A stretch of DNA of 64,000 nucleotides from Candidatus Heimdallarchaeota archaeon. GTDB taxonomy: Archaea; Asgardarchaeota; Heimdallarchaeia; Heimdallarchaeales; Heimdallarchaeaceae. The DNA lies in NCBI GenBank assembly GCA_030603365.1, contig JAUVXV010000001.1, positions 448,001 to 512,000 of the forward strand, written 5' to 3'. The notes beneath the pieces are model-generated. The model did no database searches, was not told the DNA's origin, and was given only the letters and a program-made list of their open reading frames with translations. A program made the position numbers and the translations under genes. Below are positions 37,685-41,556 of the stretch, piece after piece (within the stretch, counting starts at the first letter, position 1; each line of letters starts with the position of its first letter).

Positions 37685-38296
37685 CTATGATATAGGAATT
37701 TGCCGAATTACATCATTGGTAAGTAATTCTTTTGCTGCTCTTTGAGCATCTGTTTCAGTAAGTTTCATCAACTTTACAATATCGTTCAAGGTAGCAGCTC
37801 CTTTGTATTTCAACAAGGAAATAAGCTTCTTTTGTTGTTGACTATAAGTTTTTTTGAAATCTCCTGAAACTGTACTTGGATTTAATTCTAGTTTGGTATT
37901 GGAAAGGTTAACAGCAGGAGTAGTATACTTCCTTAAGCGTTTGTCAACAAAATCATCCATTAAAGAAAAGTGTTCTACTCGTCCATTCCAATCAGTTAAA
38001 TCTTTATTAAACCGATTATGAAATTCCTCTTGGATGTGTTTTAAATCCTCTCTCACAGCAGTATCTTCATCATCACAATCTGTGCATACAACAATAACTG
38101 TTTGTTTTGCAGTTGCATAAATGAACTTGTAATTCTTTGTTTGAAGAAAGTCACAACCTTCATCAACATTCTGAGCAAAAATCTCTATTGCACTCAAAAA
38201 GCTTGTAATAAGGTTTTCATCATGACCTATGCTACCATACTTCTTATGAAAAAGACATTCACCAGTATCTTTAGCTATCCAAATATTATGTAACAT
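37685..38296 (-). CDS. Longin-like domain + C-terminal winged helix
   Basis: IWIAKDTGECLF...DENLITSFLSAI; C-terminal HTH pattern; ATG at 38296 preferred. Confidence 0.7.
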   Translation of the reverse strand: MLHNIWIAKDTGECLFHKKYGSIGHDENLITSFLSAIEIFAQNVDEGCDFLQTKNYKFIYATAKQTVIVVCTDCDDEDTAVREDLKHIQEEFHNRFNKDLTDWNGRVEHFSLMDDFVDKRLRKYTTPAVNLSNTKLELNPSTVSGDFKKTYSQQQKKLISLLKYKGAATLNDIVKLMKLTETDAQRAAKELLTNDVIRQIPIS

Positions 38297-38335: not shown

Positions 38336-38541
38336 CTCATAATACATGGGTATTTTCTCGGACTTCTAAAATTGAAAATTAACGAGAATGCAACTGATTA
38401 CTTTTCTTCTTCTGAATATGTAAAATAGATTTGAATTTTTTCTGTGATTGTTTCTTAAAGGAAATGAAAAAAAGAAAAGGAGTGAAAAGGATCTAAGACA
38501 GAAAGTCAAAGAAACAAAGTGAATCACCCATGTATTATGAG
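38336..38541. repeat. Perfect 16-bp inverted repeat pair
   Basis: CTCATAATACATGGGT at 38336-38351 and ACCCATGTATTATGAG at 38526-38541. Confidence 0.92.
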
Positions 38542-38544
38542 TTA

Positions 38545-39015
38545 GTCAATTCAAAAATCCATTTGGGATTCTTTAAATCATTTCAGGACTCATCCTAGAC
38601 CAGCAAAATCTGTATGAAAAACTGTGTTCTTCATTGGGTTTATAACTACAATATCTGTAGCAGTACCGGTCTTCTGGCTGTAGCAAAGGAATCCTTTCCC
38701 GTTACTAGAGGGAACTCATTACCGAACTTATCAAAACTAAGAACTGATAAGTTCTCTACCTATCCCATCGAATCTATAGAAACGATATATCCCCTAAGGA
38801 ATATTTAAGCCACTGGCTTAAGGTTTTGAAGTGTTCATAATGCTCTAGATTATGATACTCACCGGAAAGCCTGTCTCGAAGTACTTTCTTCCTTTTGAAC
38901 TCTCCACTTGGTACCAAAACATATCTGATCAACCTCTTTGCTATGTTCCTTGTACCGTTCAAGTCTGCATTGAGTTCATAGTTGCACTGATGGCAAACAA
39001 CATTCCTTTTTTTTT
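38545..39015 (-). mobile_element. tnpB: IS200/IS605-type remnant: 3' fragment of tnpB plus structured right-end / omegaRNA-like region
   Basis: Minus frame reads VCHQCNYELNADLNGTRNIAKR (Zn finger + RuvC-III) with an in-frame stop and no start just upstream of the CxxC; several hairpins lie between 38545 and 38821. Confidence 0.7.
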
Positions 39016-39070
39016 GGAAAAAGAGAGGAAACTTTTAAAGCTTTAAAAATAGTTTATTAAGGAGATAAAA

Positions 39071-40660
39071 ATGTCTAAGAAACTCATTAGGATTTATGTT
39101 TGTTGCACCATCTTGATCTTTCTTTATGCTTCATTTGCTTGTAAACTAGATTCAGAACCTGATACCACAAAAAATATCGCTCGAACACAAAACTTACAAC
39201 ATAAATCATTCCCTAGAATAACTAAAACAAAATCAAGTTTGACACTTCACTCAAGTATAATTATTCTATCAGACGAGGATTTCATAACACAAGGGTTTCC
39301 AGGAGAAGGAACACCTACTAATCCTTATCGGATTGAGAATTACGAAATCACAACAAGCTTCGCAGTTGGGATATATGTATTCAATACTACTAAGAGTTTC
39401 ATAATCTCTAATTGCTTCATATCTGCTCTAGAAGATGGAATAGTAATCACTGATATTATTGCTGGAATTGTTGTCATAGAAAACAATACTTGTGCAAATC
39501 ACAATTACGAGGGGATTTACGTTTGGGGATCTAATAGTATCTTTATTAGAAAAAATGAATGTTATGGAAACCGGAATGGAATAGCTACTGATCATGTGGA
39601 TTATCTTGAGATTAAAAATAATTATTGTCACAATAATGGGATCAGCATCAAATTAGTCTTTTCAAATCATGCCATTGTCACAGATAACACCTTATCCGGT
39701 GGAGGAATTATATTGTATTACGTAGATCATTCGATATTTGAACGCAATGTCATAATTAACTATGGTTATTCTGGAATAATGATGAACTGGGGAGAACACA
39801 ATCGATTAGAGAATAATTATTGCAATGGAGGTGTTTTTGGAATTGATGTTGATATGTCACAAAATATCACGATTGTTAATAATGAATGTTCAAGGAATCT
39901 ATATGATGGTATTTTTACTAGATTCACTGATGATTTGCTAATATTGAATAACTTCAGTACAAAGAACAATGAATCAGGTATTAGAGTAGTTACTTGTTCG
40001 AATATGACTGTTGCAAGAAACACATGTACGGAAAACAAAGGCGCAGGAATCTATGCATTCTACAACTCATTAACACCCTCTATCCCACCAATAATTGAAG
40101 ATAATCTATGCAAGAACAATTCAATAGGAATGAGAGTTTGGGAAACATATTATGCAAAAATATCGAATAATACTGTCGAATCTAATGGACAAGGGATTCT
40201 ACTTGTCGATTCAAAATATATAGAAATAGTAAATAATACTCTACTAAGAAACAGAAAATATGGAGTTAAGATAGCTACTTTGCTTTCAACTTGGAATGTC
40301 ATACATCATAACTACTTCATTTGCAATAATCTAGGAGGTACAGAATATGGTTTTTCCCAAGCCTTTGATGATAGCTATAATAACAAGTGGTATGATGATG
40401 ATTCAAGCACAGGTAATTTTTGGACAGATTATGAAGGAGAAGGAGAATACTCTATAGATGGAAAATACAATATGACAGATCTTTACCCCTTTATCTATGA
40501 TTATGAATGTGCAACAATAACTGAACCTACTAGTGAGTACACTGAACCTACTAGTGAGTACACTGATGAATCAGCTATTTCAATGTTAATCACTTTGTGC
40601 TCATTTCTAGGCTTAAGTAGTATAGGTACAATTATACGAAAACGTCAGAGAAAACAATAA
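39071..40660 (+). CDS. NosD / right-handed beta-helix surface protein
   Basis: Signal peptide, GEGTPTNPYRIEN, GI...NN repeats, GNFWTDY, DLYP, C-terminal TM. Confidence 0.88.
   Translation: MSKKLIRIYVCCTILIFLYASFACKLDSEPDTTKNIARTQNLQHKSFPRITKTKSSLTLHSSIIILSDEDFITQGFPGEGTPTNPYRIENYEITTSFAVGIYVFNTTKSFIISNCFISALEDGIVITDIIAGIVVIENNTCANHNYEGIYVWGSNSIFIRKNECYGNRNGIATDHVDYLEIKNNYCHNNGISIKLVFSNHAIVTDNTLSGGGIILYYVDHSIFERNVIINYGYSGIMMNWGEHNRLENNYCNGGVFGIDVDMSQNITIVNNECSRNLYDGIFTRFTDDLLILNNFSTKNNESGIRVVTCSNMTVARNTCTENKGAGIYAFYNSLTPSIPPIIEDNLCKNNSIGMRVWETYYAKISNNTVESNGQGILLVDSKYIEIVNNTLLRNRKYGVKIATLLSTWNVIHHNYFICNNLGGTEYGFSQAFDDSYNNKWYDDDSSTGNFWTDYEGEGEYSIDGKYNMTDLYPFIYDYECATITEPTSEYTEPTSEYTDESAISMLITLCSFLGLSSIGTIIRKRQRKQ
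40520..40566 (+). repeat. 21-bp tandem duplication (TEPTSEY x2) in linker
   Basis: ACTGAACCTACTAGTGAGTAC twice, followed by ACTGA. Confidence 0.85.
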
Positions 40661-40676
40661 TTAAAGTACAATGAGA

Positions 40677-40835
40677 TTAGAAGAATCGATCTAAATCTGA
40701 CTGCTTTTTTTTCCTCATGAAATCTTTGAGTTCCTTATCTTTCTGGTCAATGAACCATTGTTTGATACGTTTATCAGGATCAACAACAGATTTTGGAACC
40801 CAGATTTCTTTATCAGTGTAATTCTCAATTAGCAT
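40677..40835 (-). CDS. 52-aa microprotein ending in a PIP box
   Basis: MLIENYTDKEIWVPKS...KQSDLDRFF. Confidence 0.55.
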   Translation of the reverse strand: MLIENYTDKEIWVPKSVVDPDKRIKQWFIDQKDKELKDFMRKKKQSDLDRFF

Positions 40836-40899
40836 AGTTTTTGCATTTAATATCAAAAAACAAAAAATAATAAAAGAGTTCAAAGAAAAAGAATAATTA

Positions 40900-41556
40900 T
40901 TATGCCTTATATGGCATAATTTCTACAACAATGTTTTCGTCAACTAATTCGATGTCTCTTGCAGCCTTACGGACAGCTTCTTTGGCGATTTCAACCATTT
41001 GATCAGTTGTTAAATCTTCATTATATGTTTCTTTCAAATAAGCAATCGCTTCAGAATCACCTTCGCCCATAGCTTTGGCTTTACAGGACATTACTCCACC
41101 TCCAGGATCTACAAAATGTAGACTTGGTCCTTTATGATCGATTCCTCCAAATAACAGCCCCACTCCAAATGGTCGAAGACCACCTTGTTGTGTGAATACT
41201 TGAATGTAATCTCCTATTTTTATCGAAAGTCCTTGAATATCAATTGGTTCTGCATAAGTTAAGTTGAAGATTTCTGCTTCTAATCTTGAACGAGTAATAA
41301 GAAGTCTACCATCAGCAGCAACTCCAGCAAAGATAGCATGAATTTTATCTGAAATTTTGTGAATCTTTAGATCGGGTTCATTTAGATCAACGATTCTAAG
41401 TAATCCTGCAAGAACTACACCATGTTTACTTTTAATTCCAACAGCAATACTTCCTCTCCTGACTGATTCTCTTGCATATTCAGTTTGAATAATACGTCCT
41501 TCAGGTGAATACATAGTTGTTGTTCTATCATATCCCATAGATTGTGGTCCTAACAT
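40900..41556 (-). CDS. psmA: 20S proteasome alpha subunit
   Basis: GYDR..MYSPEGR..Q.EYA, RPFGVGLL. Confidence 0.93.
   Translation of the reverse strand: MLGPQSMGYDRTTTMYSPEGRIIQTEYARESVRRGSIAVGIKSKHGVVLAGLLRIVDLNEPDLKIHKISDKIHAIFAGVAADGRLLITRSRLEAEIFNLTYAEPIDIQGLSIKIGDYIQVFTQQGGLRPFGVGLLFGGIDHKGPSLHFVDPGGGVMSCKAKAMGEGDSEAIAYLKETYNEDLTTDQMVEIAKEAVRKAARDIELVDENIVVEIMPYKA

Follow-up and report, generated by a model that had tools for sequence, protein, structure and literature searches.

A decayed TnpB–omegaRNA island upstream of a longin gene in a Heimdallarchaeota genome, and probable RNA-guided homing of cargo islands by its transposase-less clade

Results

The Island between the Longin and Proteasome Alpha Genes

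The window (the whole 64,000-nucleotide stretch of DNA analyzed here) comes from an Asgard MAG of 3.65 Mb, 33% GC and 89% completeness. It includes a longin gene (37685–38296, minus strand, 203 aa, ATG at 38296), kept across the genus, whose product has a longin fold and a small C-terminal helical or winged domain. A preliminary description of the sequence named it longin-wHTH: the longin fold stands, while the winged helix-turn-helix part is a tentative reading based on secondary structure only. On the same strand, the gene is preceded by a motif of the GTGAAAATACCCATGTATTAT type with a TATA-like 3′ half (38337–38359), conserved in 22 relatives and probably its promoter. A genome-wide PWM scan, in which a regulon for this motif was sought, found the one strong site and no others; a sigma-70 promoter scan is uninformative, the host being an archaeon.

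The host gene on the left flank of the island is that for the proteasome alpha subunit (psmA; 40900–41556, minus strand). In the three closest island-free relatives (G023, G020 and G016, compared by BLAST), psmA is joined directly to the longin promoter; the window instead carries about 2.5 kb of extra DNA (38360–40855), standing in place of about 30–45 nt. The right junction of this DNA lies 16–19 nt past the CAT of a target sequence in the longin promoter, described below. The island contains a guide, an omegaRNA scaffold, a tnpB remnant, a beta-helix gene and a 52-aa ORF.

The tnpB remnant (38774–39004, minus strand) consists of 74 codons covering the second half of the zinc finger, the RuvC-III motif NADLN and the C-terminus. 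Over 38777–39004 it is 69% identical to residues 455–528 of an intact 528-aa paralogue on contig C14 of the same genome, so the 5′-truncated tnpB tail noticed earlier is real; the promoter, the left end and about 450 codons have been deleted. A second intact paralogue lies on contig C3, and the trans-encoded TnpB that had been postulated is thus available from either contig. Beyond the remnant, a perfect 16-bp AT palindrome (39033–39048) stands upstream of a cargo gene for a right-handed beta-helix (NosD-like), probably secreted protein (39071–40660, plus strand); acting as a bidirectional TATA element, the palindrome could transcribe the tnpB remnant as well. In the C3 island, too, the gene next to tnpB at this position is a relative of the beta-helix gene. 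The second cargo gene, the 52-aa ORF (40677–40835, minus strand), recurs in four other clade islands at 65–80% identity, and a Pfam search of its family gave no convincing match. Members of this family are scattered in islands, also at G000 C1:698382, C7:2981 and C3:34925.

The OmegaRNA Scaffold, Guide, and T-Tract

The minus strand downstream of the tnpB remnant is structured (folding z = −2.84, including a 10-bp stem at 38724–38733/38745–38754 pointed out in the preliminary description). The scaffold (38537–38814, minus strand) has 5′ stems that overlap the tnpB stop, a long-range stem, a 3′ hairpin and a pseudoknot. In 24 aligned copies from the genus it ends sharply at TAACTCAT (38544–38537 in the window) or a one-base variant of it, with divergent sequence beyond. 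Two-sided changes occur in 8 of 31 predicted scaffold pairs. The 6-bp pseudoknot joins 38713–38720 to the terminal ACTCAT: the internal ATGAGT pairing is kept in 23–24 of the 24 sequences, and in Heimdallarchaeum relatives the partners are ATGATT and AATCAT. The window scaffold is 73% identical to that on C14; an Rfam search with it returned no meaningful match. Judged from this alignment and covariation, what had been called an omegaRNA-like region is an omegaRNA, and its scaffold is intact. An element or scaffold end at TTGAC or at TAA, as first proposed, and a full 16-nt guide with it, are contradicted by the scaffold boundary in the aligned copies.

By the same boundary, the guide begins at 38536, and its first 20 nt occupy 38517–38536 (minus strand). 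Guide positions 12–50 (38487–38525) are possibly an older guide or filler: no source for this distal part was found in 47 genomes of the order, nor a better-matching source for the guide in 25 genus genomes or in viral contigs. A terminator-like, clade-specific pyrimidine/T tract (38460–38486, minus strand) closes the guide region; full elements carry its inverted counterpart, a purine tract, on the inner side of their left end. A C/T tract follows the guide region (12–130 nt) in 22 of 26 clade copies, vs. 5.6% of random positions. The outer purine and pyrimidine tracts were considered as true terminal inverted repeats and rejected: on the left, homology does not stop at the tract but extends for about another 130 nt, in many cases reaching a HerA-like gene.

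The Inverted 16-mers and the Resident Target

The identical inverted 16-mers described earlier were confirmed: exactly two copies exist, at 38336–38351 (plus strand, 40–55 nt upstream of the longin ATG) and 38526–38541 (minus strand), and no others were found in the window or, allowing at most one mismatch, in the 3.65-Mb genome. No such pair arose in 100 shuffles of the window, and the chance expectation within 5 kb is about 4e-6 for the 16-mer and 7e-5 for the 14-mer made up of CAT and 11 nt. Five of the 16 bases form the end of the scaffold on the guide side and the TAM position on the target side. Since the scaffold ends at TAACTCAT, and so takes these five bases, the actual guide–target match is 11 nt, then 13/20 overall: the claim that a guide matches the longin promoter holds as to its being a sequence in guide position, but not for the full 16 nt.

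The resident target (38341–38351, plus strand) overlies the conserved TATA-like motif of the longin gene. The TAM position before it (38336–38340, plus strand) reads CTCAT, with T at −4 as at the element's own end. Among 22 relatives carrying the longin gene, none has a tnpB remnant at its promoter and none (0/22) has the guide–target pair, so the conservation that had been looked for is absent.

A Clade of TnpBs with Internal Guides

Twenty-six copies of the element were collected from one Heimdallarchaeaceae genus. The order within the clade is cargo genes, tnpB, omegaRNA ending TAACTCAT, internal guide and T-tract; in 22 of the 26 copies, that of the window included, a T-tract closes an internal guide, and four members have plain flanks. 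The islands span 2.5–19 kb, with variable cargo blocks upstream of tnpB, often including a HerA-like ATPase. All 18 full-length T-tract TnpBs fall into one clade (support 100/100) and keep D274, G380, E433 and D468 (invariance over 13 aligned proteins, the motifs being seen in about 28). The proteins match PF07282, with RuvC and a zinc finger, and their fold matches Cas12f/TnpB. Their RuvC is rearranged, with Gly at the canonical RuvC-II Glu position and an alternative Glu (ExxTS) before the zinc finger. It is predicted to be active: an active site of this type has been shown active in TvTnpB (PMC10530073) and is also described as active elsewhere (PMC10691335). A RuvC-dead TnpB to go with the window scaffold, which had been suggested as something to look for, was not found: both paralogues in the genome (C14 and C3) keep the catalytic triad.

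No match to the Y1 transposase family PF01797 was found in the genome (89% complete), and no Y1 gene was seen beside any copy. A Pfam search of the genome for Cas1 gave nothing over the cut-off (one weak fragment), and none lies beside any copy, with the proviso that a very divergent aCas1 may escape such a search. The genome has five resolvase (serine recombinase) genes, three of them beside another TnpB family and none in cis to the clade. IS607-like long TnpBs (about 570 aa) with canonical RuvC-II lie beside serine recombinases at G000 C14:340940–343273, C16:51396–53725 and C16:152853–155184; they are a possible source of recombinase in trans.

Members of two sister clades (44% and 36% identity) are simply inserted at a CAT core and take their guides from the flank, with no neighbor match. 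In Heimdallarchaeum and the 44% sister clade the core is shared at both ends with no target duplication, and split genes rejoin. The Heimdallarchaeum set comes from two single-contig genomes of the same family as the source genome (the name being our assignment); all 16 copies in it are plain insertions, with no neighbor matches to their guides.

Guides Match Island-Free Alleles

Seventeen of the 22 internal guides map to the insertion junction of their own island (16 islands besides that of the window, mostly inside coding regions). Three of the other five lay outside the check, one (L052) had no target that could be found, and one (L159) matches hypF in three relatives, which is non-syntenic with the context of the element. 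The guide is a copy of the uninterrupted insertion site, starting right after CAT: ten guides match island-free alleles, in relatives that are different species represented by incomplete and mutually non-independent MAGs, at 16–20 of 20 nt behind CAT. Reversed-pattern controls gave 0 or 1 match, one low-complexity guide excepted. In all 14 other located cases the resident copy either has no CAT or keeps a seed of no more than 7 nt. A strict ungapped test in each element's own context makes only 4 of 19 guides significant, the window not among them, because the resident copies are degenerate; the signal comes from empty alleles.

Both intact paralogues provide such pairs. The 15-kb C3 island (G000 C3:29290–44367; L002, L200, L201), with a HerA-like ATPase and intact tnpB, interrupts the TrxR and radical-SAM genes, which overlap. 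Against the unbroken junction in a relative (G012) its guide scores 20/20 behind CCAT, vs. 13/20 for the two resident copies. A second genome has a different guide at the same TrxR/radical-SAM junction, and this one matches its own close relatives at 19/20, vs. 15/20 for the resident copy. The C14 island (G000 C14:84450–88200; L001, L286) places an intact tnpB between divergent Lsm and rpl11 promoters, and its guide is closer to the TATA region of Lsm in empty relatives than to the resident copy. Guides equal the empty site also at ggt, dnaK/SDR, aldo-keto reductase, small GTPase, Fe-S protein and zinc-ribbon genes, and further at OTCase, an SDR, IF2 and others. Three islands share the geometry of the window, with the TAM side inverted 190–370 nt beyond the guide; the orientation of guide vs. 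target varies among clade members. Insertion breakpoints at the other islands cluster at CAT+1 to CAT+3, not at the expected cut.

The empty targets in the best-matching alleles read CCAT, ACAT or GCAT. T at −4 is found in 0 of 25 plain insertion sites of the sister clades (p about 4e-5), and the element's own end reads TCAT. From these sequences we infer that the TAM is (A/C/G)CAT, which would spare the element's own TCAT end. The resident TCAT in the window is accordingly predicted to be non-permissive: of the TAM that had been asked for beside 38336, CAT is present, but with a −4 base absent from 25/25 sister insertion sites. At this locus no relative fits the guide better than the resident allele (11-nt seed and 13/20, in nine alleles). 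In five more distant relatives the same 11-nt seed stands behind ACAT; the closest empty relatives carry TCAT or ATAT, and because of this the window guide would be a poor weapon against them.

Some alleles illustrate the variety of states. The IF2 stop site is found in two: L153 and L164 are plain insertions, and in L317 the guide is duplicated and followed by a T-tract, the resident TAM being gone. This pair is possibly a snapshot of guide internalization. Two island-free loci have immune-type alleles: in L210 (G016) the TrxR end and radical-SAM start are un-overlapped and recoded, and in L287 (G020) the Lsm promoter resembles the resident copy. Both are possibly scars of lost islands.

Discussion

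A Homing Model for the Clade

Taken together, we think it probable that this transposase-less TnpB clade carries out RNA-guided intronless homing of cargo islands, and that the window copy is a relic of it. Guided by the omegaRNA of the island, TnpB would cut island-free alleles about 20 bp from the (A/C/G)CAT TAM; repair from the island-bearing allele would then copy the island together with its altered junctions. These junctions would restore the broken gene or promoter in uncut form, and the element's own TCAT end would escape cutting. The cutting and copying steps are modeled on TnpB biology and on phage intronless homing (PMC13565253). On the guide and allele sequences, the clade probably owes its spread to the cutting of chromosomes that lack the island, not to regulation of the neighboring gene. 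The breakpoints at CAT+1 to CAT+3 and the dual states of IF2 suggest that insertion at CAT is the first step, though the breakpoints fit insertion by a recombinase as well.

More tentatively, the islands may be self-reprogramming: 11–130 bases next to CAT would be captured into the slot between scaffold and terminator without Cas1, and the new guide would then serve one of two ends, propelling the whole island into empty alleles or bringing a serine recombinase to the CAT core. We hold this version of events to be less probable than not.

In the window, the target would have been the longin promoter, 16–19 nt from the right junction, with tnpB deleted afterwards. This copy is a decayed member and the weakest example of the clade series, its main weakness being that, among the known alleles, none is a better fit for the guide than the resident one. 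The match to the longin promoter is most likely a relic without current function, because it is only 11 nt long, has a TCAT TAM and has lost its nuclease.

Alternative Explanations

The preliminary description read the locus as a possible domestication of TnpB for regulation. In its most specific form, the intact C14 or C3 TnpB would use the retained omegaRNA in trans, binding without cutting and repressing the longin promoter through the 11-nt seed. Several features are compatible with this: the match overlies the conserved TATA-like motif, the intact scaffold resembles that of C14 (73% identity), the palindromic AT element could transcribe the remnant, 10-nt guides make active TnpB bind without cutting (PMC13507860), and oppF-type TldRs use 9–11-nt guides against an adjacent promoter (PMC10705468). 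We nevertheless regard such repression as quite unlikely, and domestication as not borne out: the arrangement occurs in one genome only (0/22 relatives), there is no dead TnpB for the scaffold, the TCAT TAM, which is the 4-mer of the element's own end, is predicted to go unrecognized, the element's own promoter is deleted, and the layout at 16 other islands needs no regulatory explanation. A guide acting as antisense RNA against the longin transcript or a promoter RNA, also suggested earlier, is highly improbable. The inverted copies do make the guide complementary to the longin sense strand, but the site, 40–55 nt upstream of the ATG and over the TATA-like motif, is probably upstream of the start of transcription, just 11–16 AT-rich pairs would form, and orientation varies among clade members. 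Least probable of all is an origin of the 16-mers by duplication of a transcription-factor site, or as inverted termini of a 206-bp MITE, ideas that their quasi-palindromic sequence had encouraged. The 206-bp unit does not recur in the genome (its missing 11% excepted), the motif is single-copy by PWM, and of the two 16-mers one belongs to the native, conserved sequence, the other being composed of the invariant end of the scaffold and 11 further nt.

Another possibility is that all of these loci are passive relics. An IS607-like insertion at the CAT core would have had its flank as guide; later rearrangement, and repair with spare gene ends, would have split guide from target, immunity being selected only against self-cutting and the cargo not homing. 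In favor of this are the like behavior of the sister clades, the plain flanks of four clade members, the occurrence of the IF2 stop site in a plain and a duplicated state, the breakpoints at CAT+1 to CAT+3, and the serine recombinases in trans. We consider this unlikely overall, as it leaves unexplained the intact tnpB in 18 copies, the guides that track the current empty allele of each lineage, and the T-tract that recurs after the guide at unrelated loci. Island homing by the clade, with the window copy as relic, remains the reading we prefer.

Comparison with Known Systems

IS607-family TnpB–omegaRNA systems belong to serine-recombinase elements, with restorative homing at the empty site. 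The clade resembles them in its solo tnpB, the 3′ pseudoknot of its omegaRNA, a guide aimed at the empty site, a TAM one base off the right end and, in the sister clades, a short core shared at both ends without target duplication (the left end of the window copy is missing). It differs in that the core is CAT, not GG or a G-rich target, in having no recombinase gene in cis, in cargo islands of 2.5–19 kb behind tnpB, and in the coexistence of guide and target, with the resident copy altered. In addition, instead of lying in the flank the guide is part of the element, which also supplies the T-tract that closes it. This internal guide also sets the clade apart from IS200/IS605, where it is the right-end flank, as does the lack of any Y1 TnpA found in cis or in trans. 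A MITE would have multiple copies, unlike the unit in the window.

A parallel in mode of action is provided by the free-standing homing endonucleases of T-even phages (Seg, Mob), whose intronless homing has been reviewed (PMC13565253). There too a nuclease gene lies between conserved genes; in rival alleles it has its target in a neighboring gene or junction, while the allele that carries it is altered. By sequence, this pattern of rival targets and altered resident copies holds for the clade, and weakly for the window copy. The differences are RNA recognition, a different target at each locus, and an archaeal chromosome as host. No intronless homing of cargo by TnpB is listed in that review.

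In its active site, with RuvC-II Glu replaced by Gly and an alternative Glu in ExxTS, the clade is like TnpB RIIr-5, TnpB2 (TvTnpB) and Fanzor; unlike the TvTnpB/Fanzor type, its proteins are 510–530 aa long, and the long scaffold lies mostly downstream of the stop. As with TldRs (PMC10705468), a short guide match lies over what is probably the promoter of an adjacent gene. TldRs, however, are RuvC-dead, intact and conserved with a partner gene, and none of these features is present in the window; they also have a cognate TAM at the target, where the window has CAT with a −4 T that is predicted to be non-permissive. The Asgard aCas1–TnpB loci (Cas1H-Asgard-1 and -2; PMC10691335) likewise combine an Asgard TnpB with a hypervariable region between conserved sequences; here there is no adjacent cas1, the downstream T-tract is not GTTCACTCA, and the guides come from the insertion site.

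What appears to be new here is the clade-wide correspondence of guide to insertion site, together with the TAM rule; a literature search of incomplete coverage turned up no account of this clade or of islands that home by means of TnpB. If the homing model is true, TnpB does more than keep its own small transposon in place: in Asgard archaea these elements would amount to a gene drive of natural origin, guided by RNA, that spreads multi-gene islands and has been retargeted at 17 or more loci of one genus. Such a drive would offer a path for the gene flow that these genomes show. Between the flank-derived guides of transposons and acquired CRISPR spacers, the internal slot for the guide is a candidate intermediate step. 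The loci also offer a testable series: a predicted TAM, ten pairs of guide and empty allele, and matched immune alleles.

Additional Observations

In another species, an independent intact clade island (L050, G003:C93) lies just upstream of zinc-ribbon and longin genes, with a guide aimed at the start of the zinc-ribbon gene. L170 and L166 have a second, decayed scaffold end beyond the T-tract, 100–170 nt after the guide, which suggests successive elements at one locus. A conserved structured 5′ region about 350–150 nt upstream of tnpB is found in L049–L052 and L155–L170; it consists of two long hairpins and a purine tract that is an inverted copy of the T-tract, and may be a second RNA or a recombination site. 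In Heimdallarchaeum, host genes are split by at least 15 solo tnpB insertions (L053–L086), which have a CAT core and are bounded by short inverted ends; in L056 part of the element end is duplicated in tandem. More distant relatives of this TnpB in Thorarchaeota (L063–L123, about 35% identical) have a GC-rich, highly structured tail of more than 380 nt.
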